A stretch of 51,040 bases of DNA from a virus. Its lineage: Duplodnaviria > Caudoviricetes. The notes below the pieces were generated by a model that made no database searches, had not been told where the DNA came from, and saw only the letters and a program-made list of their open reading frames with translations. Where the stretch lies: positions 1 through 51,040 of the IMG/VR virus record IMGVR_UViG_3300037424_001249; one strand, written 5' to 3'. A program made the translations under genes and the position numbers. This document shows, in pieces, positions 5,883 through 51,040 of this stretch; positions within the stretch are counted from its first letter, which is position 1, and every line of letters begins with the position of its first letter.

Positions 5883-5962
5883 GCTTTCTTCGTGCCACGT
5901 TTGTGGGTTGTATTTATGGTGGGTTACAGTCTACGATCGGAGGTCATTCGACGTCGGTGGGT
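5883..5962 (-). promoter_or_regulatory. sigma54-type promoter plus truncated upstream motif, cassette 3
   Basis: TGGCACGAAGAAAGCA; GGTCATTCGACGTCGGTGGGT at 5942. Confidence 0.7.
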
Positions 5963-6798
5963 CAATATGCTTCGGCCTCTTCTCGAGTTTTGAAAAAGTG
6001 AATCCCGGGAGCACACTCCACGCGGATGTCGTCAGAGTAGTTTGGTTCCACCACCCCGGCACCGACTGTGTAAGTGAATCTCGGATCGTGCGTGCTAACG
6101 TAAGGCCCTGCGCCTCCGTCAGACGCACTTAACACTACAGCTCTGTCGCACCTGCACTTCGAGCCCACGAGCGACGCTGTGCGGCGTCCAGTGACAAGCA
6201 GCTCCAACACAGTGCCGTTGACCACCTTTTTCCAGCCGATGAGACCTGCGCTCTGGAGCTGAAAGTCGGGAAGAATGGCACCCCTGAGGTTCGCGCACTC
6301 GAGGTTCGCACCCCTGAGGTTCGCGCACTCGAGGTTCGCGCCCTCGAGGTTCGCACCCCTGAGGTTCGCGCCCTCGAGGTTCGCGCACTCGAGGTTCGCA
6401 CCCCTGAGGTTCGCGCCCTCGAGGTTCGCGCACTCGAGGTTCGCACCCTCGAGGTTCGCGCCCCTGATGTTCGCGCCCTCGAGGTCAGCACCCCTGAGGT
6501 CAGTATACCTGAGGTTCGCGCCCTCGAGGTTCGCATACCTGAGGTTCGCACCCCCGAGGTTCGCACCCCCGAGGTTCGCACCCTCGAGGTTCGCGCCCCT
6601 GAGGTCAGCACCCCTGAGGTCAGCACACCTGAGGTCAGCACCCTCGAGGTTCGCGCCCTCGAGGTTCGCGCACTCGAGGTTCGCACCCCTGAGGTTCGCG
6701 CCCTCGAGGTCAGTACACCTGAGGTCAGCACACCTGAGGTTCGCACCCTCGAGGTTCGCGTCTGGCCTAATCGTAACTTCGTATCCGTTGATGTTCAT
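5962..6798 (-). CDS. pentapeptide repeat protein with C-terminal DUF5758-like domain; first gene of cassette 4
   Basis: About 30 A(N/D)L(R/E)(G/C) repeats (15-bp DNA repeat, ~6280-6760); C-terminal KCRCDRAVVL..ECAPGIHFFKTREEAEAY. Confidence 0.9.
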   Translation of the reverse strand: MNINGYEVTIRPDANLEGANLRCADLRCTDLEGANLRGANLECANLEGANLEGADLRCADLRGADLRGANLEGANLGGANLGGANLRYANLEGANLRYTDLRGADLEGANIRGANLEGANLECANLEGANLRGANLECANLEGANLRGANLEGANLECANLRGANLECANLRGAILPDFQLQSAGLIGWKKVVNGTVLELLVTGRRTASLVGSKCRCDRAVVLSASDGGAGPYVSTHDPRFTYTVGAGVVEPNYSDDIRVECAPGIHFFKTREEAEAY

Positions 6799-6812
6799 GT
6801 GTCGTTGTCCTT

Positions 6813-6908
6813 GCATCTTGAGGGCCACGTTGCCGTGGCCGCGATTTCAAGCACTTCGAGGCCCGTCTGGTGGGTCATTCGACGTCGGTGGGTGCCGATT
6901 ATCGGTCA
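6813..6908 (-). promoter_or_regulatory. sigma54-type promoter plus upstream motif, cassette 4
   Basis: TGGCCCTCAAGATGCA (same as cassette 2); motif at 6872. Confidence 0.75.
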
Positions 6909-7173
6909 GGTCGATTCCGGCGAGGCACGTCAGGGCCTGGCGCGCGTCGGCCAGTTGCTTCTGTAGGTCCTCGATTCGAGTCTGACGCACAGGCCCGGTC
7001 TGACGTGCGATTCTAAGGAGTCTTGCCGCGCCGATCGGCACAACCGACTCAGAGCACACGGCACCGGCGAGCGCAACCTTGTCTGCGTCCACCTTGTGGT
7101 AGTCAGCAATTTGGCTCTCCAGGTACGAGATCAGAATTACCACAGCATCGCAAATATCGCAGACACTAGTCAT
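6847..7173 (-). CDS. hypothetical protein
   Basis: ORF in the minus-strand chain; its 3' end runs through the cassette 4 motif. Confidence 0.5.
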   Translation of the reverse strand: MTSVCDICDAVVILISYLESQIADYHKVDADKVALAGAVCSESVVPIGAARLLRIARQTGPVRQTRIEDLQKQLADARQALTCLAGIDLTDNRHPPTSNDPPDGPRSA

Positions 7174-8242: not shown

Positions 8243-10714
8243 GTGCCTCAAGACTCTCTCGCTAGCTCCCCCGGGTTCGGTACGCGCGGACCGACGGGCA
8301 TAACCCGGGGTGAGCTAGCCCTTTTCCCCGTCACCTGGATTGTCGACGGGGCCTGTTCTTGCGGCAAATCCGACTGCGCGAGCCCTGGGAAACACCCCCT
8401 GGTTTCCGGTGGGTGCAAAGCCGCTACTACTGACGCCAAACAGATCGCAGAGTGGCAGCAAAGATGGCCTGACTGTAATTGGGGCGTGGCCACGGGTTCC
8501 AGCTTGGTTGTAATTGACCTGGATCGCAAACGCGGGGTCGACGGAGTTTCTGCGTTTCGGGCGCTCGCTCGAGAGCACGGGGGGGAGTTGCCGGCCACCT
8601 ACTCCGTGTTGACCGGGGGAGGGGGAGCTCACCTCTACCTGAGGACCTCAGTGCCGATCGCCTGCTCAGTCGGCAAGGTGGCCCCAGGAATCGACGTGCG
8701 AGGGGAGGGGGGCTACGTCATGGCCCCAGGGTCGGATCACGTGTCGGGGCGGTCCTATGAGGTCGCGCGAGATTTGCCGATCGCGGACATGCCCGCGTGG
8801 CTCGAGACTTTGTTGACGCCAGCAGTGACACCACAAGTCCAGTCGCCCACAGAACGAACCAACTTTGGCCCCGCGTCCCCTGAGGTACTGTCGCTTGCTC
8901 GCGCGGCACTGATCGAGTCAGGGCCCGCGGTCCAAGGTAGTGGGGGAGACGATCACACGTTCTGGGTTGGGGCGATGATGAGGCACAATTTCGCCTTGAC
9001 AGAGGCCGAAGCCCTGCCGCTGTTTCGGGAGTGGAACCTCACCTGCAAACCACCGTGGTCTGAGGCCGGACTACTCGCCAAGCTCCGAGGGGGCGCGAAA
9101 TACGCCAAAGGCAAGTTTGGTGATCGCCGTCAAGTCGATGTGTTGACTCAGGTCATGGCGCTGCTTGACGCGTATGCCCAGGGTGGTCAAGACAAAACGC
9201 GGCTACCAGAGTTAACAGCTAAAATCAATCAAATAATCGCCACAGGAATTCCTCAAGCCACGTGGGCTGTGATCAACCACGAAATCAAAATTGCTACAAC
9301 GCTCACGGCTAAGGCACTGGGGATCGGGAAACCGAACGCATTGAAGGCCGCGGGTGAGGCCCGAGTTGCAGCAAACCCGGGGGGAGTCATTGACCCCGAG
9401 TACTACGACAAGCAAGCCCTAGCCGTTCTGGACCCAACGCGCGATGAAGCCGGAATCCCCCTGTTGGCGAGGTGGGGCGAAGATTTCTGGAAATTCAACG
9501 GTGCATATTATGCGCCCGTTTCGTCCGAACACATTGACGTAGCGTCACGCAAGTGGCTCGGAGGAAAACTTGATACGAAGGGCGACGAAGTCAAGGCATG
9601 CAGCCATCACGTTGACGAGATTCGGAAGGCCTTGATCGGCCAAATCACTGTGACCGGAGGGGTTGCCCCAGCTTGGCGATCGGACGAACCATTCCCAGCG
9701 AACGAGGCGATCTGCTTCGCCAACGGTGTCCTGAGGCTCACCCCGCGCACCTGGTTGCCCGGCCCGAGACGGGATTTATTCTCTCTGAGCTCCACGTCGT
9801 TCGGATTCGACCCTGACGCACCAACACCCGCGAGATGGTTGGCGTTTCTCAACCAGATTTGGCCAAACGATCCTGAGGCGATTTCGACCCTGCAAGAGAT
9901 CTTCGGACTCATGCTCACAACTGATACGAGCTTTCAGAAGATCTTCATGGTGATCGGCCCTCGGAGGTCAGGCAAAGGGACGATCGCCAGGGTCCTGACC
10001 GAGTTGGTTGGGCAAACCGGAGTCTGTCACCCGACACTCGGGGGCTTGGGCCAGCACTTCGGACTTCAAGGCCTGATCGGCAAGCAACTGGCGGTAATTT
10101 CTGACGCACGCCTGTCAGCCAAGTCTGACGTGAGTCAAGCGACGGAAGCCCTACTGCGAATTTCTGGTGAGGACGGAATTTCAATCCCGCGCAAAAATCG
10201 TGAGGACGTCGCACTCAAGCTCAATGTGCGCTTTCTCCTACTCACGAACGAACTTCCATACTTGTACGACTCGGCGGGAGCGCTCGCGGCGCGATTCGTG
10301 ATCCTGCAAATGGCTCACTCGTTCTTGGGCCAAGAGACTCTTGATCTCACGCGACGCCTACTGACAGAACTTCCGGGCATTGCCCTGTGGGCACTCGAGG
10401 GGCTTGAGCGACTCTACTCGAGGGGCAGGTTGGTTCAACCCGCGAGCGGGAAACAGGCCATGGTAGAGCTTGAAGAAATCACGAGTCCAATCAAGGCTTT
10501 CGTCGAAGACAAGTGCGTCATCGGCCCGGGCATCTCATGTGCTGCCACTGAAATCTATCAGGCGTGGTGTGAGTGGTGCGCGCAATCGGGGCGCAAAGAA
10601 ACTGGCACGGTCCAGATCCTGGGGCGCAACCTCAAGGCCGCGTTCCCCTCCGTCACCTCGGTCAGAGTGGGCGAGGGTGGCCAGCGCCGCTTCGGAGGGG
10701 TCAGGGTGCGCTAA
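8243..10714 (+). CDS. bifunctional primase-polymerase fused to D5/P4-type SF3 helicase
   Basis: CSCGKSDC..PGKHP, VIDLD, TGGGGAHLY, IDVRGEGGYVMAPGS; GPRRSGKGT Walker A; C-terminal winged helix. Confidence 0.92.
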   Translation: MPQDSLASSPGFGTRGPTGITRGELALFPVTWIVDGACSCGKSDCASPGKHPLVSGGCKAATTDAKQIAEWQQRWPDCNWGVATGSSLVVIDLDRKRGVDGVSAFRALAREHGGELPATYSVLTGGGGAHLYLRTSVPIACSVGKVAPGIDVRGEGGYVMAPGSDHVSGRSYEVARDLPIADMPAWLETLLTPAVTPQVQSPTERTNFGPASPEVLSLARAALIESGPAVQGSGGDDHTFWVGAMMRHNFALTEAEALPLFREWNLTCKPPWSEAGLLAKLRGGAKYAKGKFGDRRQVDVLTQVMALLDAYAQGGQDKTRLPELTAKINQIIATGIPQATWAVINHEIKIATTLTAKALGIGKPNALKAAGEARVAANPGGVIDPEYYDKQALAVLDPTRDEAGIPLLARWGEDFWKFNGAYYAPVSSEHIDVASRKWLGGKLDTKGDEVKACSHHVDEIRKALIGQITVTGGVAPAWRSDEPFPANEAICFANGVLRLTPRTWLPGPRRDLFSLSSTSFGFDPDAPTPARWLAFLNQIWPNDPEAISTLQEIFGLMLTTDTSFQKIFMVIGPRRSGKGTIARVLTELVGQTGVCHPTLGGLGQHFGLQGLIGKQLAVISDARLSAKSDVSQATEALLRISGEDGISIPRKNREDVALKLNVRFLLLTNELPYLYDSAGALAARFVILQMAHSFLGQETLDLTRRLLTELPGIALWALEGLERLYSRGRLVQPASGKQAMVELEEITSPIKAFVEDKCVIGPGISCAATEIYQAWCEWCAQSGRKETGTVQILGRNLKAAFPSVTSVRVGEGGQRRFGGVRVR

Positions 10715-10945
10715 CTACCGCATCTTGCCAGCGGTCCAACGGGCGGGTTCCTCAACCTCAAACCGGTAACCGTCAGACACCTTGGTCTGCGTTCCGTCAG
10801 TGAAAGACACCGTCACCTTGCGCGTGTGCCTGAAGTTCTCCGGCCCCTCGACTATGCTTGCGACAGTGCGGCAAAGGCCGTTGTTTCGGTTGAGCACCAC
10901 GTCGCCAGACTGAAGATGACCGCTGTAGATTCGAACCGTGTTCAT
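10715..10945 (-). CDS. small beta-barrel-like (SH3/KOW-like) hypothetical protein; first gene of cassette 5
   Basis: LQSGDVV...TVASI...VTVSFTDG; ATG 14 nt after the -12 GC. Confidence 0.6.
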   Translation of the reverse strand: MNTVRIYSGHLQSGDVVLNRNNGLCRTVASIVEGPENFRHTRKVTVSFTDGTQTKVSDGYRFEVEEPARWTAGKMR

Positions 10946-10959
10946 GTCTCTAACGTATT

Positions 10960-11053
10960 GCTATTCACGTGCCACGTCTAGAAACACGAAAACCCGTGCC
11001 TTTACGAGCGCACGGGATGGGTCATTCTCGGTCGGTGGGTGCCGATTATCGGA
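10960..11053 (-). promoter_or_regulatory. sigma54-type promoter plus upstream motif, cassette 5
   Basis: TGGCACGTGAATAGCA; motif at 11019. Confidence 0.78.
10985..11016 (-). terminator. putative intrinsic terminator inside the cassette 5 spacer
   Basis: Minus strand CCCGTGC-N10-GCACGGG followed by TTTTCGTGTTT. Confidence 0.5.
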
Positions 11054-11201
11054 CAGTCAACGCGACCCCGATCGCTTCCTTAGACTCCTTGAGTCCAAGA
11101 CCAGTGCGACTCCGGTAGGCCTTGATTGCGGAGATCTTCAGTCGGGGTGAAATCCGTTGTTCAACAATCGGGTGTACAGCGTGGGGTGAATTCCGCCGCA
11201 T
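11046..11201 (-). CDS. ribosomal protein bL12 C-terminal-domain-like peptide (possibly a fragment)
   Basis: Translated by hand: KISAIKAYRSRTGLGLKESKEAI. Confidence 0.55.
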   Translation of the reverse strand: MRRNSPHAVHPIVEQRISPRLKISAIKAYRSRTGLGLKESKEAIGVALTVR

Positions 11202-11329
11202 TCTGTCTTAGTGTAAATCAGGCGAAACAGTGCGTCCAAGACAGCCTTGCGCAACTCTACTCGTCCAAGGACTGCGCACAGGGTGTCAGTGGGCGCGCCC
11301 CTGATCTCTGCCTCGAGTCGAGGGTTCAC
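11138..11329 (-). CDS. hypothetical protein
   Basis: GTGA-coupled to the upstream ORF. Confidence 0.5.
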   Translation of the reverse strand: MNPRLEAEIRGAPTDTLCAVLGRVELRKAVLDALFRLIYTKTECGGIHPTLYTRLLNNGFHPD

Positions 11330-11502
11330 TGTGTCACCTTGAACACGGTTCCAGGGTACTCAAGACGAACCATTTGAATCATGCGACCCTTGACGGGGTA
11401 GGAAACCGTAACCGAGCCATCGGGGTGCACCTCCTTGACAGTGCCAGTGACCGAACCCGGGGAAGCGCGAACCTTGTCACCCACCTTGCAGTTGTTCTTC
11501 AT
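11326..11502 (-). CDS. KOW/SH3-like small protein (paralog A); first gene of cassette 6
   Basis: KVGDKVRAS..GTVKEVH..VSYPVKGR..RLEYPGTVFKV. Confidence 0.65.
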   Translation of the reverse strand: MKNNCKVGDKVRASPGSVTGTVKEVHPDGSVTVSYPVKGRMIQMVRLEYPGTVFKVTQ

Positions 11503-11515
11503 GTCTCTACCTATA

Positions 11516-11606
11516 GCATTCGACGTGCCACGTTTACTTGCCAGTGATTTCAAGACTTACGTCGTCAGACCATGGGTCACTCATCGTTGGTGGGTGCCGA
11601 TTATAG
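11516..11606 (-). promoter_or_regulatory. sigma54-type promoter plus upstream motif, cassette 6
   Basis: TGGCACGTCGAATGCT; motif at 11574. Confidence 0.78.
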
Positions 11607-11625
11607 GTCGGTGCTGCGGCATGAG

Positions 11626-11943
11626 TTATGCTAGCTCAAACTTCGCTTGCTTGTCGGCTTTAGTGAGCTTGCGCACACCGAAGACACGCCCCAGCATGCC
11701 CACGCTGTACGTGGCGACCTCCTTGTCGTGCATGCTCCATGTGCTCAGACGTTCCACTTCTGGCACTAGCATCCAGGTGGGTGCGTTGTGATTCCAGCTC
11801 ACCTTGGCTGTGCTGTCGCAGACCTTCAAGATCTCCACAGGATACTCGCAGACGGTGTCCAGGGTCGTATTGCCAAACTTGCGCGTGTGTCGATCGTACA
11901 GCGTCATGCTAACCCTGACCTTTTCAAACTTGATTGCCATCAT
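11626..11943 (-). CDS. hypothetical protein
   Basis: AAGGAG RBS; 105-aa ORF. Confidence 0.65.
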   Translation of the reverse strand: MMAIKFEKVRVSMTLYDRHTRKFGNTTLDTVCEYPVEILKVCDSTAKVSWNHNAPTWMLVPEVERLSTWSMHDKEVATYSVGMLGRVFGVRKLTKADKQAKFELA

Positions 11944-11982
11944 CTCTCCTTATATCGGGTTAAAACCGTTGTTCAGCAGTCG

Positions 11983-12192
11983 TCACAGCACTTTGAAAAC
12001 AGTACCTGGGAATTCCAGGCGCACGATCGGGTACGTGCGACCCTTGACAGGGTAGGACACCTCAAGGGCCTCCCACGCACTATTTTCGCCGTTGCGCCGG
12101 TGAACCTCCTTGACGGTGCCAATGACTGAATTGAGTGAGGCGCGAACCTTGTCACCAACTTTGATGTTTTTCATGTTTTTATCCTCAGTCAA
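11983..12192 (-). CDS. KOW/SH3-like small protein (paralog B; start may be 12174)
   Basis: Clear paralog of 11326-11502. Confidence 0.65.
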   Translation of the reverse strand: MTEDKNMKNIKVGDKVRASLNSVIGTVKEVHRRNGENSAWEALEVSYPVKGRTYPIVRLEFPGTVFKVL

Positions 12193-12427
12193 AAAAGTCG
12201 CTACCGTGTTTGGTGCAAATGTGCTCCCGGATGCCCTTGAGCAAGTCGTTGATATCGCTCACCTTGACCGTCTCAGCGGCCTGGCAACGGACAATCGAGA
12301 GCACAGCAGCCGACACCAGCGCGGCGCGGATAGGGCCGGTCAGGTAGCCCGTGACGGCCCCGTTTTTGAAGTCGACGGTGTAGATGTCCTTAGCGTGTGC
12401 TGCGACTTGTTTAGTTGACCAGCTCAT
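12185..12427 (-). CDS. hypothetical protein; first gene of cassette 7
   Basis: ATG 13 nt after the -12 GC. Confidence 0.6.
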   Translation of the reverse strand: MSWSTKQVAAHAKDIYTVDFKNGAVTGYLTGPIRAALVSAAVLSIVRCQAAETVKVSDINDLLKGIREHICTKHGSDFFD

Positions 12428-12440
12428 GTCTCTACCTATA

Positions 12441-12530
12441 GCACTCGACGTGCCACGTTTTCTGGCCAGTGATTCCAAGACTTACGTCTGTGGACCGTGG
12501 GTCATTTACCGTCAGTGGGTGCCGATTGTA
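12441..12530 (-). promoter_or_regulatory. sigma54-type promoter plus upstream motif, cassette 7
   Basis: TGGCACGTCGAGTGCT; motif at 12499; near-duplicate of cassette 6. Confidence 0.78.
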
Positions 12531-12700
12531 GTACAGTTTCGATTCCGCCTGGCTCGTACCACCCATGTGATCCCGTCAGGAAAGCACACCGACCACTGGT
12601 TGCGCGGGGCCTGGAAGCGCTCACGTTCGCCAGAGTCTCGAAACCAGTAGGTCACAGGTACGAGCCGCGGGAACGTGTCCTCAGGCGTTTCCACTGTCAC
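12512..12700 (-). CDS. hypothetical protein
   Basis: GTGA-coupled ORF. Confidence 0.45.
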   Translation of the reverse strand: MTVETPEDTFPRLVPVTYWFRDSGERERFQAPRNQWSVCFPDGITWVVRARRNRNCTTIGTH

Positions 12701-12963
12701 GTATTCTCGTGGCGCTCAAGCAAGTTGAGCCGAGCGGCGAGGTCCGCAGCCTCAGCCAGAGCAACACGGTAGGCGCAACGCTCAGTAGAGCCCACGTTGC
12801 AGTTTTCCCACAGCTTGACGATCGCGTTGACTCCTCGTGCGTGTGTGGAGATCATCTTGACGGACTCAACGCCAGGGTCAACCTCGAGGACTGCGACCCT
12901 ACGGTAGGTCCCCCAGCACGTCGCGGAGGGGGTGGTGGCTGCTGTCTGTACGATGTAGGGCAT
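12697..12963 (-). CDS. hypothetical protein
   Basis: AAAGGA RBS; 88-aa ORF. Confidence 0.6.
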   Translation of the reverse strand: MPYIVQTAATTPSATCWGTYRRVAVLEVDPGVESVKMISTHARGVNAIVKLWENCNVGSTERCAYRVALAEAADLAARLNLLERHENT

Positions 12964-13042
12964 TTCAGGATCCTTTCAGGACTCAGGCACAAGCTGCTTC
13001 AAAATTCGACTCGCGCTTCGTTGCTCACGTCTCTCACGTACT

Positions 13043-13132
13043 GCTATTCACGTGCCAGCTTGCCGGACGAATCGTTTTCAATAGTTGCGAACTTCGCCCA
13101 TGAGTCATTTTGCGTGGGTGGGTGCCGAATAT
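13043..13132 (-). promoter_or_regulatory. sigma54-type promoter plus upstream motif, cassette 8
   Basis: TGGCACGTGAATAGCA; GAGTCATTTTGCGTGGGTGGGTGCCGAAT at 13102. Confidence 0.75.
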
Positions 13133-13252
13133 GCGACAGATCCCAACGAAGCCACGGGTAACACACTGGGCAACGCCATGCTCCCGCGACAGTCTCCCAC
13201 AGCCCAGTGGGCTCGTGGGCAGGCCAACCACCGTATCCGCCGACACATGTGG

Positions 13253-13489
13253 TCACAGGATCTCCACAGTGCCAACGGCCTCTAGCACGTGCACCGCGCG
13301 GAGTGTCCACCGAACAGTACACGGCGTGTGTGGTAGCACTTTGCGCACATGTTGGCACACGACTTGATCACACGCACTTGTTGACTCCGGAAACGCGCTT
13401 CCCAGGGCTATGCTCAGGGTGCTGCGGCCCATGAGGCCTGGCCGCTTGATTGTGCACACAATTTCCCACTTTGGGCCGTTGAGACTCAT
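13253..13489 (-). CDS. hypothetical protein
   Basis: TAAGGAG RBS directly after the upstream stop. Confidence 0.55.
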   Translation of the reverse strand: MSLNGPKWEIVCTIKRPGLMGRSTLSIALGSAFPESTSACDQVVCQHVRKVLPHTPCTVRWTLRAVHVLEAVGTVEIL

Positions 13490-13500
13490 AGCTTAACTCC

Positions 13501-14286
13501 TTACCAATCTGGTCTTGGTTTCTTGATTATGATGCCAACATACGTCGGGTTCGCCGTCTTACGACACTTGACGTCCTTCTTGAGATCCCTCAAACCAAAG
13601 CGCGCGAACAACCTGAATTCGGCCCTGTCCTTGGGTGGTGGCTTGAGTTTGGTGTCTAGGTAGTCGGCATACAGATCGTCAAGCGTAACGCTTGCGTCTT
13701 TGAATCGGAAATCACAGTAGTGCGCCAGGTACAATCTAACACTCTCACGCGGACACCAGGCATGCTTAATCTTCGCCCCAATCAATTCCATGTTCGGACC
13801 TGGGGGGTCAGGCTCCCGAGGGCACAAACCATACCAATACCCTTGACACTTGTACATGTGCGATGTGCGCTTGTATCGGAACGAATACGACGCAGTTTCT
13901 CGAGAAAGCCGCTCCAAGATTCGGCCGAACTGGCTACGGTCCACAGGGCCGCTATCCCAACTGTGTTTCCAGAAATGGTCCCAAAGCTGGTTTAGGGTCG
14001 AGTAGGCCTCAGGACCGAACGAGCAAGCGCGCTCCAGGAAGGTCCTAACCCCGCCAGTTGCGTCGTACCCGCTTCGTGGAGGGAGCGGGTCAGGGTACTT
14101 GAGCGGAAATCCCTCTCGAGTCGTGAGTCCTGCCCTCCAACGAGATAGGTCCCACTCAGGATCGAACGGATCCATGCACAACGCCACAGGACCATACTTG
14201 AGGGGCTGTGGCCCGTACTGTGGCCCGATCGGCCCCTGGGGGGTATCTGGGCACGGTTCGAGTGGTTTGGGCTCGTCCTGGGGCAT
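13501..14286 (-). CDS. protein with two primase-C-terminal-like (D5/P4 alpha-type) winged-helix domains
   Basis: VRTFLERACSFG..LWDHF..QFGRIL..WYGL and VRLYLAHYCDF..LYADY..YVGI resemble the primase C-terminus IKAFVEDKCVIG..IYQAW..ILGRNL..FGGV. Confidence 0.6.
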   Translation of the reverse strand: MPQDEPKPLEPCPDTPQGPIGPQYGPQPLKYGPVALCMDPFDPEWDLSRWRAGLTTREGFPLKYPDPLPPRSGYDATGGVRTFLERACSFGPEAYSTLNQLWDHFWKHSWDSGPVDRSQFGRILERLSRETASYSFRYKRTSHMYKCQGYWYGLCPREPDPPGPNMELIGAKIKHAWCPRESVRLYLAHYCDFRFKDASVTLDDLYADYLDTKLKPPPKDRAEFRLFARFGLRDLKKDVKCRKTANPTYVGIIIKKPRPDW

Positions 14287-14365
14287 TTCTTAAGACTAAC
14301 AGCCGTGGGGTTGGTTGTCAAATCCAGGATTTTTAGATCGTAAGTGCGCGTAAACACACTAGCTA

Positions 14366-14715
14366 GCACTTGACCGAAGCTATCGAGCAGTCTCCTAAGG
14401 CATCGAAATCACTATAAGTGTTCAACCTAATTACACGTGGTTAGCGCTTGACCTACTTTCACCGCTCGATGCGATCGACTCTCGGGCGCTTGGCTACTAC
14501 GACAGAGATCTATTCTCTTGACACTGTAACACACATAATAGTTTCTACAGGTCGCGTCCCTCTGAGAATCGATCTCTGTCGTAGTAGCCAAGTGGCCGAG
14601 AGTGAGATCGATCGAGCAGGAAATATCGGTCAAGCGCTAAGTGCCTGATATTGTGTTGAACACTTATAGTGAATTCAATAGGTTAGAAGACTGCTCGATA
14701 GAGTTGGTCAAGTGC
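14366..14715. repeat. long imperfect inverted repeat (two ~152-bp arms, 46-bp loop)
   Basis: Perfectly complementary blocks CTTGGCTACTACGACAGAGATC (22), TCACTATAAGTGTTCAAC (18), TTAGCGCTTGACC (13), TATCGAGCAGTCT (13), GCACTTGACC (10). Confidence 0.92.
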
Positions 14716-14846
14716 GAGTTGATCTCAAATGATAGGAGATCAAGAGAACGATTGACCTAGGACGATAGCAAGTCAAGTCTTGATATGGAACGATAGTAGA
14801 TCAAGTGTGCTCTTGACTTCGTATCCTTGTAGATCAAGAGAAGAGC

Positions 14847-14859
14847 TAAGTTGTTGATT
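14847..14859. promoter_or_regulatory. IHF consensus site
   Basis: TAAGTTGTTGATT matches YAANNNNTTGATW. Confidence 0.5.
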
Positions 14860-14949
14860 TTTGGGAACTTTTTGGATCGTGACCATATGTGACCATACAT
14901 GCAACATATTGAAATTATTGGTTTGAGGGGGTACACCCCTCCATGGGCA

Positions 14950-15000
14950 TAGGTTCTTCCGGGGTGATCCCGGTCAAGCGGGTAACACGGACGCGCGTTC
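14950..15000 (+). other. candidate lambda-like cos (packaging) site
   Basis: AGGTTCTTCCGGGGTGATCC resembles lambda cosQ-cosN flank GGGTCCTTTCCGGTGATCC; lies upstream of the terminase genes. Confidence 0.4.
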
Positions 15001-15214
15001 TGAGCACATGTATGATATCTTGAACTGTATACAAGTGACGTACAGTGTCCTACATTGTAGCTGATCGACTTGTGTGCGCGCTGTGTTTCTTGATGTACAC
15101 AATCAGGCACTCCTAAGGTTACAACTGGTGCACACCCTCAGCACGATCGCACCGTCTTGACACCTTATGAAGCACCATAGTAGATACCAAATAGGCACCA
15201 ACCAGGAGAGCAAC

Positions 15215-15478
15215 GTGGCACTAACGGACGAAGAAGCACTGTTGTTTGGCCAACCCAGTGCCAAGGAAGATAACGCGTCTGCACCGATAAGTGACGAAGC
15301 CACTTCACCGGCAGTCACCGCCGAGTCACCTAGTAGGCGCTACCCTGTTCCTTTGTCTGACACGCTCCGGCAAAGTTTGCGCGCACTGGCCAAGGCGAAC
15401 CACCAGCCTATGTGGTTCACTATCGTGAAGCTACTTGAAACAGGCGTTGTAGCCAGACACGGAAAGGGGCCGATGTGA
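15215..15478 (+). CDS. ribbon-helix-helix (Arc-like) DNA-binding protein
   Basis: AGGAG RBS and GTG start; RRYPVPLSDTLRQSLRALAKANHQPMWFTIVKLLE. Confidence 0.6.
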   Translation: MALTDEEALLFGQPSAKEDNASAPISDEATSPAVTAESPSRRYPVPLSDTLRQSLRALAKANHQPMWFTIVKLLETGVVARHGKGPM

Positions 15479-15846
15479 GTGACCTTGATCAGAAGCGACT
15501 CGCGGTGTGGCGGAAGTCTTATGGTGGTGTTTCCCGTGCGGCCTTTATGCTGAGGATTGACCTTGGCGACGCTGAGGCCGAAAAAGACTTGGCCCGTGTG
15601 ACTGCTACTGGGTTCGACCCGTGGGATCCGAAACACCCCGCGGAAGTCAAGACTCCGCTTGCATTCCCGCCAAAAACTGAATCTGCGAACGACGCCAGGT
15701 TTTGGACCACACGCGCCGCATGGTTCAACGCTCGCGCGGCCAAGGTGAACGCTGAGGAGAAGTTGACCAAGGAGGACGAAGACACCTCGGGGCTGATGGG
15801 GACCCTAAAGCAGATCCGCTCAGAAGGTGTTAAGGTCGACCCATGA
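15475..15846 (+). CDS. hypothetical protein sharing an N-terminal motif with TerS
   Basis: KRLAVWRKSYG..DLARV..GFDPW. Confidence 0.65.
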   Translation: MSDLDQKRLAVWRKSYGGVSRAAFMLRIDLGDAEAEKDLARVTATGFDPWDPKHPAEVKTPLAFPPKTESANDARFWTTRAAWFNARAAKVNAEEKLTKEDEDTSGLMGTLKQIRSEGVKVDP

Positions 15847-16484
15847 CCCCGGAAGAGTTGCATGCCAAACGCATGACCGCTTGGCGCAAGGCCTATGGGG
15901 CAAAGCCGCGGTCTGAGATCCCGCCTGGTGATCTTGAGCGGGCGGACAAGGCAGGTATAGACCCGTGGGCCTACATCTCGCTCACGGAGTTTGCGACGTC
16001 GCAAGGCGTGACCGTGGGAGCGGTGTCCAACGCTTGCCGCTCGGGTCGCCTCGAGAAGGCAGTGGTCTGGAACGAGGATCACACCAGAGTTGTCGGCGTG
16101 ATTCCAGACATCGCAGCAGTAGAATGGTCTCGGAACCGCGACCCCGCTCACGCGGATCAGGCCCCGCCATCCCCCGGCGAATCTGAATCCGAGGACAACG
16201 AGACCACCGAACTTGGTCCGGCCGCTCAAGCGAAGGTTCGGTCACTCATAGCTCAAGCGCGGCTTCACGAGCTGAAGTTGGTCAAAGAGGCTAGGCAGGT
16301 GGTACCCCTCAACGAGATGATCGACGGGGCCGGTAGGATGATCGTGGCCTACAAAACCGCAACTCTGTCGATCCCCTCGCGGTTCAAGCAAGCCGTTCCG
16401 CACCTCTCGATCGATGAGATGAGGATCCTCGAAGACCTGATCCGCGAGACGTTGACCCATCTAAACGAATGGTCCCCAAAATGA
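15843..16484 (+). CDS. terS: terminase small subunit (Nu1-like)
   Basis: HTH SLTEFATSQGVTVGAVS, coiled coil ARLHELKL, SIPSR; upstream of TerL. Confidence 0.75.
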   Translation: MTPEELHAKRMTAWRKAYGAKPRSEIPPGDLERADKAGIDPWAYISLTEFATSQGVTVGAVSNACRSGRLEKAVVWNEDHTRVVGVIPDIAAVEWSRNRDPAHADQAPPSPGESESEDNETTELGPAAQAKVRSLIAQARLHELKLVKEARQVVPLNEMIDGAGRMIVAYKTATLSIPSRFKQAVPHLSIDEMRILEDLIRETLTHLNEWSPK

Positions 16485-17083
16485 TCTCAGCTCTCTTTGT
16501 GCACAAAAACGGGGCCTACTTCGGGTTGCCTGACGTTGATCCTTGGGACGAAGAACGTGACGCGCGCCTCTACCGGGGGCCTCACCCCGTAGTCGCGCAC
16601 CCCCCATGCCAGCGATGGATCAACCTTGGCGTCATGAATTATGCTCGCTGGGGAGGTGATCACAATCGTCCGGGCAACGATGGCGGTTGTTTTAAGTCCG
16701 CTCTTGATTCCGTGCGCCGCTGGGGTGGTGTGCTGGAACACCCGGCGTATTCCAAAGCGTGGCCAACGTTCGGCCTACCTCGACCAGAGCCCGGAGGTTG
16801 GCGGGGGAACCTGTTGAATGGTTGGGTGTGTCAGGTCGAACAAGCGTGGTACGGGCACCCCGCCAGAAAACGAACCTGGCTATACGCTTGCAAGGTGACT
16901 ATCCTTCCTGAACTACAGTGGGGAGTGTTTCCGAAGCAAGACCTAAAAGCGCAAGTGTCGTGGTGTAAGAATCACACCAACCAATCCGACCCACGGAAGC
17001 GTGTGGGCAAAGACATCGCCGCAGCTACCCCAACGGCATTCCGCGATCTCCTCTTGAGCTTGGCGAGGAGCGTAGAACCATGA
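16481..17083 (+). CDS. truncated C5 cytosine methyltransferase-like protein
   Basis: VAHPPCQ (motif IV), VLEHP (VI), Q.WYGHPARKRTWL (VIII); no FxGxG motif I. Confidence 0.6.
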   Translation: MISALFVHKNGAYFGLPDVDPWDEERDARLYRGPHPVVAHPPCQRWINLGVMNYARWGGDHNRPGNDGGCFKSALDSVRRWGGVLEHPAYSKAWPTFGLPRPEPGGWRGNLLNGWVCQVEQAWYGHPARKRTWLYACKVTILPELQWGVFPKQDLKAQVSWCKNHTNQSDPRKRVGKDIAAATPTAFRDLLLSLARSVEP

Positions 17084-19083
17084 CAACCGCGCGCGAAGAC
17101 TTCCCAGAGTTGGCGACGTTTCAGGCGTTCATGGATCGCGTCAAGGCGCTTGTGTTACCACCTCCCAAGCTGACTCTCAGTCAGTGGGCGGATGAGCACT
17201 TTCAACTTTCAGCCACATCAAGTGCCCAGTCTGGAAAATGGCAATGCTTACCATACCAGCGGGAGATCATGGATTGCATCACAGACCCATCGATCGAACA
17301 AGTAACCGTAATGAAAAGTGCGCGTATCGGGTGGAGTCTTATGATTAGCGCCGCCATCGGCTACCACATCGCCCAAGAGCCCTGCCCCATCCTAGTTGTG
17401 CAGCCAACCATTGAAGATGCCAAGGGATTTTCCATCGAAACAATTACCCCCATGCTTCGTGACGTGCCTGTGTTGGCCGCAATTCACGTGCAAGATGAGG
17501 AGGGCCCGAAGGTCAAAGGGAAGCAGCGCGAGACGATTCTGTCCAAGACGTTCCCTGGCGGCGTGATCACGATGATCGGAGCCCAATCCGGATCCGGGTT
17601 TCGCCGCATTTCTCGCAGACTGGTTGCGTTTGACGAAGCAGACGCGTACCCACCTAGCGCCGGTGAAGACGGTGATCCAATCACGCTTGGGATCAAGCGT
17701 TCCGACTTCTATTGGAACCGCAAAATCCTGGTTGGGTCAACGCCCCTCACCGCCGGGATCTCCCGCGTTGAAGCGCACTTTGAGAAGGGCGATCGCAGGC
17801 GTTTTCACGTGCCTTGCCCAACGTGTGGCCACTTCGATTTCCTGGTCTTCAGCCCACGCAAGGATCTCCGCGGACACCGTATGGTTTTCAAGTCCGAAGA
17901 TCCGGACTCCGCTCATTTTGTGTGTAGCGCGAATGGTTGTAAGATCGAACATTCAAGCAAGCGAGACATGGTAGCCAAGGGCAAGTGGATTGCCGAGATG
18001 CCCACGAAGCGCCACGCGTCCTTCCACATTTGGGCTGCATACTCATACTCCCCGAATGCGTCTTGGGGTCAGTTGGTGAGAGAGTTTCTTGACGCCACCA
18101 AGGGAGGACGTGAGACGTTGCGCGTCTTTTTGAACACCGTACTAGGCGAGGTCTGGCGCGAATCTGGCGACATGCCTGATTGGGAAAAACTCATGGCCCG
18201 TCGCGAGTCGTGGGAGGTTGGGACGGTGCCCAAGGGAGTTGCGTTCTTGACGGCTGGTGTCGACGTTCAGCGCGACCGGTGGGTGTACGTTGTCCGCGGC
18301 TGGAAGGAGAACAGAGAGTCGTGGGTCGTTGACGCTGGCGTGTTGCCCGGTCGCCCGTCTAACGAAGCAGACTGGGCAGTCGTGGACATGCTCCTTGGGC
18401 GCACGTACGAGAGTGAGCAGGGGCCGATGGCAATCCGCGCCATGGCAGTGGACTCGGCTGACCAGACTCAAGATGTGTACAACTGGTGTCATCGCCACCC
18501 GAAGAATCGTGTCATGGCGATCCGCGGCACTGCTTCCCAACGCACATTGGTGGGGTCGCCCTCGGCAGTGGACCTCAAGACCAACGGGAAGAAGTTGTCG
18601 AAAGGGTATTCCTACTGGCCTGTGGGCGTCAGTATCGCGAAAACAGAATTGTACGGTTGGCTAGGGTTCGCCCGTCCTCCTGAGGGCGTGCCGCATCCAG
18701 CGGGGTACTGTCACTTTCCAGATTGGATCGGCGAAGACTTTTTCCTGCAACTCACGGCCGAACAGTTGGTCACCAGCGTTGGGAGCAACGGCCTTGCGAA
18801 ACAGGAATGGAAGATCTTGCCAGGGCGGGAGAATCACTACCTCGACACAATGGTCTACTCGCGTGCGGCGGCTTACGTCATGGGCCTTGATCGCATGAAG
18901 TTGCCCGTCGTTCCGGCGCTCCCGAAGCCCGCGCCAACTCCCGAAGCAGAGCAAGTCATCAAGGCCGAGGTTTTCAAGCAACTGGTCAACACGCCGCAAC
19001 CTCCGGCCCCAGTCAAGCCCACGACCCCGAAGCAACCCAAGACAAACTGGATCATGGGTAACCGCAAAGGATCTTGGCTCTGA
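17080..19083 (+). CDS. terL: terminase large subunit, lambda gpA family
   Basis: MKSARIGWS, FDEADAY, GSTP, VPCPTCG, TAGVDVQ, NHYLD. Confidence 0.95.
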   Translation: MTTAREDFPELATFQAFMDRVKALVLPPPKLTLSQWADEHFQLSATSSAQSGKWQCLPYQREIMDCITDPSIEQVTVMKSARIGWSLMISAAIGYHIAQEPCPILVVQPTIEDAKGFSIETITPMLRDVPVLAAIHVQDEEGPKVKGKQRETILSKTFPGGVITMIGAQSGSGFRRISRRLVAFDEADAYPPSAGEDGDPITLGIKRSDFYWNRKILVGSTPLTAGISRVEAHFEKGDRRRFHVPCPTCGHFDFLVFSPRKDLRGHRMVFKSEDPDSAHFVCSANGCKIEHSSKRDMVAKGKWIAEMPTKRHASFHIWAAYSYSPNASWGQLVREFLDATKGGRETLRVFLNTVLGEVWRESGDMPDWEKLMARRESWEVGTVPKGVAFLTAGVDVQRDRWVYVVRGWKENRESWVVDAGVLPGRPSNEADWAVVDMLLGRTYESEQGPMAIRAMAVDSADQTQDVYNWCHRHPKNRVMAIRGTASQRTLVGSPSAVDLKTNGKKLSKGYSYWPVGVSIAKTELYGWLGFARPPEGVPHPAGYCHFPDWIGEDFFLQLTAEQLVTSVGSNGLAKQEWKILPGRENHYLDTMVYSRAAAYVMGLDRMKLPVVPALPKPAPTPEAEQVIKAEVFKQLVNTPQPPAPVKPTTPKQPKTNWIMGNRKGSWL

Positions 19084-50537: not shown

Positions 50538-50698
50538 GCTCGCGCAGTCTAGCAGCTTCTAGCGCGCCACGCACCCACCCACCCTCTTTACCCCAATTAT
50601 ACACGGTACTCATTGCCACACCTAACTTAGCCCCCACGTCGGCCAACGTCATACCTTTTTGTACAACTTTCGCGCTAGGTCCTTATTTTTCAGGTTTC

Positions 50699-51040
50699 TC
50701 ACCTCGAGCCAACCACCCACCTATAAATCGTAGACTTGCTCACACCTAATTTCTTGCTTATTTCTTTAAGGGTTAGTTTTTGTTCTGTGTACATTTTTCG
50801 TGCGGCCTCCACACGCGCAACATCCTGCTCTTTAGTTTCGGCGCTAGACCGCAACCACCCACCTTTACGCCCCAACCTATGAATCGTAGACTTGCTCACA
50901 CCTAATTTCTTGCTTATTTCTTTAGGGGTTAGTTTTTGTTCTGTGTACATTTTTCGTGCCTGCTCTTTTCGTGAGTCCTCCTCCGGTTCAGGTTCCTCGA
51001 CTTCAACGCTGAATTCCTTGCGCTGCTTTCCGTTCGGGAG
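50699..51040 (-). CDS. 3' end of the SF2 helicase, version with two tandem HTH units
   Basis: Overlaps window positions 1-208 but carries an extra 156-bp HTH unit. Confidence 0.75.
   Translation of the reverse strand, partial: LPNGKQRKEFSVEVEEPEPEEDSRKEQARKMYTEQKLTPKEISKKLGVSKSTIHRLGRKGGWLRSSAETKEQDVARVEAARKMYTEQKLTLKEISKKLGVSKSTIYRWVVGSR

Follow-up and report, generated by a model that had tools for sequence, protein, structure and literature searches.

The longest non-coding stretch of a lytic-looking myovirus, represented by an IMG/VR virus record of 51,040 nucleotides (nt) that was analysed over its whole length (the window), has the lowest GC content of that genome (0.46 versus about 0.59) and lies where its genes diverge. 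The leftward operon starts at 14286, and thus 880 nt (14287-15166) separate the two divergent operons. This intergenic region contains a 356-bp imperfect palindrome, four dyad-symmetric iterons, an exact consensus site for integration host factor (IHF), an AT-rich tract and a probable cos site, and it adjoins the gene for an orphan protein of 261 amino acids (aa). We propose that it may be an iteron-type replication origin and control hub bound by the 261-aa protein. The proposal is tentative, plausible rather than probable; among the readings considered it appears to be the most likely, with a pure transcription switch as its main rival and a role in packaging third.

Anatomy of the intergenic region

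A first-pass annotation of this DNA had described an imperfect palindrome with arms at 14366-14517 and 14564-14715. The palindrome is real, and its arms span 14363-14517 and 14564-14718 (Table 1). They are complementary at 121 of 155 positions, without gaps, around a centre of 46 nt, and self-BLAST found no other long inverted repeat in the 51-kb record. Perfectly matched blocks of 10, 14, 18, 13, 7, 8, 22 and 6 nt alternate with diverged spacers, and this clustering, also part of the earlier description, was borne out by permutation (20,000 permutations): the mismatches fall into 19 runs (P=0.0007), and 77 bases lie in perfect runs of at least 10 (P=0.0011). The longest run, 22, is by itself unexceptional (P=0.089), and small compensating indels account for part of the clustering. 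Each arm carries two copies of TAGCRCTTGACC (block A), two copies of ATCGAGCRG (block B), one 18-nt block and one 22-nt block. Blocks B, C and D have no copies outside the region, and no second iteron cluster was found. The combination of conserved blocks and diverged spacers fits selection on discrete protein sites. Within and beyond the arms, plus-strand copies of CTTGAC lie at 14369, 14447 and 14517, and minus-strand copies at 14629, 14707 and further right. The GC content of the centre is 0.34-0.52 in 50-nt windows, its left part being AT-rich (0.34-0.44).

The palindrome might also be passive, that is, an old inverted duplication or a palindromic mobile element that settled in a tolerant intergenic region and does nothing for the phage. 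Arms that are just 78% alike, in single copy and with no detectable relative (neither a blastn search of 13400-15900 against phages nor a search of IMG/VR for the block-A pair pattern returned any) are what such a remnant would leave. The clustering of mismatches argues otherwise, as does the failure to find a copy of the 22-nt block in viral or genome collections. Moreover, motifs of the blocks are also present beyond the arms, both at 14972 and within the half-sites of the iterons, and the nearest relative has a palindrome in the same slot, the only one of such size among 97 related IMG/VR and metagenome loci. We therefore regard a functionless repeat as improbable.

The first-pass annotation had further allowed for a structured RNA or an invertible DNA segment, and both suggestions fared poorly. 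A long hairpin is predicted for a 372-nt stretch (-119.9 kcal/mol, z -17), which is no more than an inverted repeat of any kind would give, but Rfam gave no match in the window, just 7 of the 34 mismatches per strand are G.T-compatible (about chance level, without wobble bias), and no terminator-like site was found. As to inversion, the genome encodes no recombinase of the serine or tyrosine type, neither resolvase nor integrase: searches with PF00239 and PF00589 found nothing at E<=0.1, whereas controls were positive in 13 and 14 of 14 genomes. An independent contig from X1, the one public run that contains the sequence, shows no alternative joint, though in the 73% of the run that was read 13058-14980, and with it the palindrome, is not covered. 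Of all the readings, these two together are the least credible. Two further candidates were rejected: a telomere-resolution site, because the centre is non-palindromic (a resolving enzyme was not searched for), and parS, because just the CACGTG core is present and in one arm only.

To the right of the palindrome, the reported recurrence of CTTGAC-type hexamers was confirmed and refined. Of the 104 window copies of CTTGAC/GTCAAG, nine fall in the 880-nt region, where 1.8 would be expected; for CTTGA the figures are 15 of 255 and 4.4. The motif CTTGAY is common to arm block A and the iteron half-sites and is denser here than anywhere else in the genome (10 per 500 nt versus a mean of 1.5). The sequence AGATCAAG, previously noted three times, is indeed present at 14737, 14798 and 14831, which are three of its six window copies. 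These are the right halves of 25-bp dyad sites, and there are four such sites, not three. At zero mismatches the pattern TTGAYNT-N11-ARNTCAA matches these four sites only in the window; since it was derived from the same four sites, its uniqueness to the locus alone counts as a result. [quoted passage not shown] The window has four IHF matches versus 0.40 expected, a number that none of 100 shuffles reached. The AT-rich tract, a candidate unwinding element, carries GTGACCATA twice, at 14879 and 14889.

The same intergenic region appears to contain cos, which the first-pass annotation had missed. The 13-mer TAGGTTCTTCCGG at 14950-14962 is followed at 14972-14981 by a fifth copy of block A (CCGCTTGACC, one mismatch), which abuts the predicted cut at 14981 (GGTAACACGGACGCGCGTT), where the mature DNA would have its left end. 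The X1 contig ends exactly at 14981 (GGTAACACGG), with its other end in the terminal repeat. Among related contigs, fetched with an alignment of the large terminase (TerL), 45 start 500-900 nt upstream of TerL with a common GGT...CTAGGCA motif, and a profile of these starts finds the site at the same distance in three longer contigs (E 3.8e-4 to 5e-3). This nhmmer profile of distant relatives' ends left 14981 unscored, its best window match (E 2.3) lying elsewhere. In 906,198 bases (window plus loci), TAGGTTCTTCCGG is exact just twice, the other copy being in relative G005, where GGT follows after 16 nt (18 nt in the window); the G005 contig itself starts arbitrarily, because of a 127-nt assembly overlap. 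At up to two mismatches there are 24 matches, seven of which have the layout upstream of terS/TerL (the window, L117, L020 and its duplicate L115, L034, L051 and L016); the remainder are scattered, and L119 and L123 add two more cases of the layout. From the X1 contig end and the shared layout of 13-mer and GGT, cos can thus be assigned to about 14950-15010 with reasonable, though incomplete, confidence. If so, the palindrome, iterons, IHF site and AT-rich tract fill the last ~620 nt of the right end.

A corresponding cos architecture, T(A/G)GGT(T/C)CTTCCGG followed after 14-18 nt by a left end in GGT, was seen in a large family of phages and prophages with gpA-type terminases (window 14950-15010; L117 1807; L020 5516; L034 112; L051 6382; L016 2620; L119 1631; L123 2748). 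Such a conserved motif lets the physical ends be predicted for a whole family of uncultured phages and prophages.

The proximity of cos raises the question of whether the dyads and the IHF site, with the palindrome perhaps included, belong to cos as sites for terminase and IHF, like cosB or cosQ of lambda. IHF sites are part of lambda cos, and in the window cos lies at least 143 nt to the right of the iterons, with the fifth block-A copy at the predicted cut. In the 45 contigs of relatives, on the other hand, the cos elements lie within ~45 nt to the right of the left end, directly upstream of terS, whereas the window sites are on the side that is packaged last. The palindrome of relative L020 is 1.45 kb from its cos, with two genes between them, and we know of no terminase site laid out as dyad iterons beside an AT-rich tract. 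A packaging accessory is thus an unlikely explanation, and we return to the origin.

The 261-aa protein and the primase-helicase

The candidate binder of these sites is encoded by the first gene of the ~3.5-kb leftward operon (10715-14286), as judged from codon scoring. The source annotation calls just the last 96 codons (13501-13791) of its 261-codon open reading frame (ORF), while a second assembly calls the full ORF. The next gene of the operon (13253-13489) has an AAGGAG ribosome-binding site. A putative sigma-70-type promoter lies so close to the 261-aa gene that its ATG, at 14286, comes six nt after the -10 element, implying a leaderless mRNA. A sigma-70 consensus scan did not list this promoter, because its -10 element matches at just three of six positions.

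The first-pass annotation had seen in this protein two repeats resembling the C-terminal winged helix of the phage's own primase-helicase. Its N-terminus is proline-rich, and residues 80-128 and 183-255 align with a winged-helix profile built for hhalign from the primase C-termini of the window and 12 named phages (13 domains). Residues 80-128 fall on profile columns 3-53 (score 24.8, P 8.5e-4), residues 183-209 on columns 3-28 (score 21.6, P 3.5e-3), and the last strand is matched by residues 248-255. Of 200 shuffled sequences, 2 reached the top score and none gave a second match of that size; 12 other window proteins scored 8.3-12.7. By BLASTP the likeness to the primase is insignificant (E 0.3), with both best segments on primase residues 750-776. 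In a protein language model, clusters that bear Pox_D5 account for 14 of the 30 nearest neighbours when the whole protein is compared, and for 24 of 30 with residues 165-261 alone (scores 0.91-0.92). The protein would thus likely contain two putative domains of the P4-alpha/D5 type; the resemblance to the primase C-terminus shows up only in the profile comparison and in the language-model features.

No homologue of the protein came to light. A word-index search gave 0 of 476 candidates, a pattern scan of IMG/VR proteins found no relatives, and neither did tblastn, run with the protein and those encoded next to it on sets of 80 and 79 related loci. An exhaustive HMMER search of 1.84 billion cluster representatives returned only the identical 96-aa gene call of the same record. 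With no homologue among so many representatives, the 261-aa protein would represent the P4-alpha/D5 origin-binding domain in a stand-alone form that is new.

The primase itself, a fusion of primase-polymerase (prim-pol), D5_N and superfamily 3 (SF3) helicase regions, ends in a winged-helix domain, which could be a second reader of the sites. A six-frame search with PF03288 had the primase as its sole match (E 0.014). The phage thus has an SF3 helicase with a C-terminal winged-helix domain, as do the Pri-Rep elements of Staphylococcus aureus pathogenicity islands (SaPI) and phage-inducible chromosomal islands (PICI). A query with the primase gave no relatives, a search with its C-terminal region returned only itself, and a PDB sequence search of the C-terminus gave nothing meaningful.

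A possible origin or switch

In the arrangement that we favor, 14287-15166 would act as a control hub where the mature chromosome has its right end, with the promoter of the 261-aa gene, the palindrome, the four dyad iterons, the IHF site, the AT-rich tract and cos following one another from left to right. The iterons, IHF site and AT-rich tract would most likely constitute the replication origin. The 261-aa protein would be a sequence-specific origin binder that reads the common CTTGAY half-sites through its two P4-alpha/D5-type winged helices, and the palindrome would supply two mirrored sets of CTTGAY and further sites. These sites could auto-regulate the adjacent leftward promoter, and they could also set the SF3 primase-helicase in two orientations; the 261-aa protein and the primase would divide the work between them.

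Several precedents are consistent with the arrangement. The lambda origin, as outlined in the cited account, has four iterons, each a 19-bp imperfect inverted repeat, with an AT-rich region alongside (PMC7466680). SF3 helicases with winged helices are described as using origins of ~300 bp in which short iterons face each other across a central region, and SaPI helicases as having symmetric iteron origins bound by such C-terminal domains (both from portions of bioRxiv 10.64898/2026.10.17.759575). In lactococcal c2-type phages, according to the relevant part of a review of the literature, origins lie in the divergent intergenic region between early and late genes (PMC7150918).

A bolder version can be stated. 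The 261-aa protein could be a free-standing, duplicated version of an SF3 primase-helicase's origin-binding winged helix that serves as a dedicated loader or competitor. It would work at a giant mirror-symmetric site, 260 nt from the end of a lytic phage's chromosome, where a pair of helicase hexamers would be placed head to head. Papillomavirus E2 is such a partner for E1, and Cnr for alpha in P4. We think this version unlikely. If true, a bacterial virus would have its counterpart of the palindromic SF3 origins of eukaryotic DNA viruses, complete with its own accessory protein.

A number of results weigh against the origin reading as a whole. Pfam (E<=10), PHROG and PDB sequence searches found no match to the 261-aa protein, and BLASTP found no similarity between its two halves. 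Its language-model matches share 149-164 of 256 features, under the 170 typical of true family members. A fold comparison had been suggested in the first-pass annotation; the profile comparison aligned two segments, as described above, while a single-sequence AlphaFold2 model was unusable (mean predicted local distance difference test score 30.6), and an alignment for modelling could not be built because the protein has no homologues. No DnaA box is present in the intergenic region, and a DnaA-box reading was accordingly rejected. The iterons, only 143-262 nt from cos, could serve packaging. A turn in GC skew, which the first-pass annotation had proposed to analyse, is present at the region, but it is confounded, because gene orientation switches at the same place. 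That annotation had also taken the palindrome for a symmetric origin recognized by the primase. The array is real, the C-terminus of the SF3 helicase matches RFX- and Pox_D5-type models, and the SaPI precedent holds; yet 3.6 kb separate the palindrome from the primase gene, which is not the arrangement of SaPI-type modules, and the palindrome of L020 occurs without an SF3 primase, which argues against a primase-specific site.

The case of L020 deserves a closer look. A single TerL query of IMG/VR and metagenomes had given relatives of at most 41% identity, and the nearest phage is L020 (record G001), with 56% identity in TerL and 54% in both portal and sheath. Its gene order is that of the window: a long intergenic region follows the leftward orphans, and after it come two small ORFs, terS, an inserted mobile gene and TerL. 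The intergenic slot holds a palindrome with 104-nt arms (85%) that are 174 nt apart. Among 79 genome loci, the largest palindromes are in L155 and L168, at other positions. The palindromes and intergenic regions of the window and L020 are not significantly alike (best local alignment score 24, reached by 32 of 300 shuffles). The neighbouring leftward gene of L020 has a sub-threshold match to HTH_43 (E 0.0033, below Pfam's cut-off), and the D5 C-terminal profile gives no match to its protein (score 15.0, P 0.05). Genome G001 replicates with a DnaB-like helicase and RecET. The palindrome is therefore not tied to an SF3 replication module and may be a transcriptional device, a further point against the origin; it appears to be tied to the divergent junction and the first leftward gene, rather than to cos or the primase as such.

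These observations bear most directly on the main rival, in which the palindrome and dyads are operators of the divergent leftward (early) and rightward (packaging and structural) promoters and have no role in replication; the product of the first gene would bind them and repress or activate by looping, assisted by IHF. Both operons must start within the region, and the candidate promoter is 42 nt from the palindrome; the sigma-70 scan, however, found no promoter pair where 1.8 were expected. Regulator genes commonly lie beside their operators, and the L020 palindrome occupies the same slot beside a leftward gene with a weak HTH_43 match in a genome with a different replication module, but the two palindromes share no sequence. 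An operator array with 155-nt arms would be far larger than any phage operator known to us. The layout of iterons and an AT-rich tract is typical of origins, as far as the accounts cited here describe them. A pure switch is thus a possibility to be taken seriously, though a doubtful one.

Another relative speaks for the origin. L119, a contig of a metagenome-assembled genome labelled Acidobacterium, has a lambda-O-like initiator gene (552-1556; phrog_270, E 4.2e-6) about 460 nt to the left of cos, and this gene holds four internal TCACCGGTGA dyad iterons (1086-1174). The slot is therefore an origin slot in at least one relative.

The origins of uncultured lytic phages with a primase-helicase of their own have almost never been defined. 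Here, the candidate cis elements (iterons, AT-rich tract, IHF site, symmetric array and cos) all lie within 700 bp with a candidate binder encoded alongside, which would make the region a compact test bed for how SF3-type helicases are recruited to DNA in bacteria.

As to the wider setting, the phage encodes sheath, tube, baseplate, portal and a fused protease and major head protein, besides PolA, a superfamily 2-like helicase and the prim-pol/D5_N/SF3 helicase. Positions 1-127 of the record recur as 50677-50803, and 40-208 recurs with 98% identity at 50871-51040 (self-BLAST), so that its ends overlap; the record thus represents a circularly permuted assembly with its break in a duplicated module that codes for a helix-turn-helix (HTH). 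The record is classed as linear, yet looks complete. The short HTH module is duplicated in tandem at 1-208 and 50677-51040 and is also the C-terminal tail of the helicase gene at 23-1663. Between terS and TerL, the window has a mobile methylase-like gene (16469-17083), which is no synteny marker, and L020 has a homing endonuclease (6235-6984). Prophages of the Roseomonas group have imperfect palindromes of 100-250 nt, 6.5-7.7 kb upstream of the large terminase gene (L155 1312-1559; L157 327-423; L158 896-1009; L163 1323-1426).

Elsewhere in the genome, six sigma-54-like -24/-12 motifs (TGGCACG-N4-WWGCW) are found on the minus strand (13042, 12440, 11515, 10959, 5882 and 4365), all on the strand of the early genes and several directly upstream of start codons; the window has 10 matches at up to one mismatch versus 2.8 expected. 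The phage encodes no sigma-54 activator domain. No sigma-54 promoter for either flanking operon was seen in the intergenic region, and that candidate was rejected. Seven copies of ATAATCGGCACCCACC, each containing the small palindrome CCGATAATCGG, also occur on the minus strand (13117, 12514, 11589, 11034, 6887, 4105 and 2718), and four of the seven are ~75 nt upstream of a sigma-54-like motif, resembling an upstream activator site. A gene at 5962-6828 (minus strand) codes for a highly repetitive protein, with DNA repeats offset by multiples of ~15 nt (6278-6760) and a homologue in G001 (L114 4625-6136).

Table 1. Positions of the features discussed (window coordinates)
Feature	Position	Strand	Details
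Prim-pol/SF3 helicase gene	8243-10714	+	Prim-Pol, D5_N, DUF5906, RFX_DNA_binding
Primase C-terminal winged-helix domain	10463-10711	+	RFX_DNA_binding E 6.1e-6 (isolated C-terminus), Pox_D5 E 0.16; possible second reader of the sites
Gene for 261-aa orphan protein (P0001)	13501-14286	-	Open ORF, weakly positive codon score
Candidate sigma-70-type promoter of 261-aa gene	14293-14321	-	TTGACA 14321-14316, 17 nt, TAGTCT 14298-14293; putative, read from sequence
Palindrome, left arm	14363-14517		Blocks A-D
Block A, left arm	14364, 14442		TAGCRCTTGACC
Block B, left arm	14382, inverted at 14464		ATCGAGCRG
Block C, left arm	14409		TCACTATAAGTGTTCAAC
Block D, left arm	14489		CTTGGCTACTACGACAGAGATC
Palindrome, centre	14518-14563		46 nt, non-palindromic; begins with third CTTGAC
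Palindrome, right arm	14564-14718		Mirror image of left arm
Iterons E1-E4	14719, 14752, 14780, 14813 (14719-14838)		25-26-bp dyads; consensus TTGAYNT-N11-ARNTCAA(G); spacing 33/28/33
AT-rich tract	14840-14920		GC 0.36-0.46, in genome's longest low-GC stretch; candidate unwinding element
IHF consensus	14847-14859	-	AATCAACAACTTA, exact
cos region (probable)	14950-15010	+	13-mer 14950-14962, block-A copy 14972-14981, predicted left end 14981
Small-terminase-like gene	15843-16484
gpA-type large terminase gene	17080-19083

Comparison with known systems

Among the closest known systems are the SaPI/PICI origins (Rep1, PriRep5). Like the elements that carry them, the phage genome has an SF3 helicase that ends in a winged helix, and its non-coding element resembles, as far as those origins are set out in the source cited above, their ~300-350 bp with iterons (CTTGAC(C) here) that face each other across a centre, some being inverted on each side. 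Unlike them, it does not lie directly downstream of the rep gene but 3.6 kb from the gene end at 10714, with the leftward operon between. Its arms are long and conserved in blocks rather than simple hexamer arrays, its centre is just moderately AT-rich, and a separate tandem-domain protein is encoded alongside; the sites here are candidates only.

Ori-lambda is similar in that its four imperfect-dyad iterons directly adjoin an AT-rich tract, in the cited account, as the dyads do here, and L119 combines an O-like initiator with four dyad iterons to the left of cos. The iterons of the phage are, however, longer (25 bp against 19 bp), and they lie between genes, whereas those of lambda lie within the initiator gene. 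No O-like family is matched by the 261-aa protein, and the phage has its own primase-helicase and PolA. The similarity to lambda-type cos of gpA-terminase phages is confined to 14950-15010, where a gpA-type large terminase goes together with the motif and GGT left end that are common to relatives and found at contig ends.

In P4 alpha, the C-terminal domain binds octamer iterons at ori and crr. To our knowledge, a stand-alone protein made of two copies of that domain has not been described for P4. The phage differs in that its primase is of the prim-pol type and that there is no second iteron cluster, whereas P4 has ori and crr. The order of primase, SF3 helicase and C-terminal winged-helix DNA-binding domain is shared, as that order is given in the portion of the source on alpha (PMC2777425).

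The iteron plasmids (RepE, RepA, pi) offer the fourth comparison, with an AT tract, iterons, an inverted repeat, a promoter and, in the phage, a gene for two putative winged helices. In these plasmids the initiator represses its own gene at the inverted repeat. The inverted repeat of the phage is 356 bp instead of a few tens of bp, and the host genome is that of a lytic phage. Rep_3 (PF01051) has no match in the genome at E<=1 and none in the 261-aa protein at E<=10. RepE, in the part of the literature that deals with its domains, consists of WH1 and WH2 (PMC4980987).

Membership in the lambda-O, Rep_3 and SaPI classes thus fails in each case on at least one tested feature, and the region would therefore be a variant that works like them and is a member of none. 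Its layout appears to combine features of ori-lambda, of iteron plasmids with two winged helices, of self-loading SF3 origins and of the domain order of P4 alpha.

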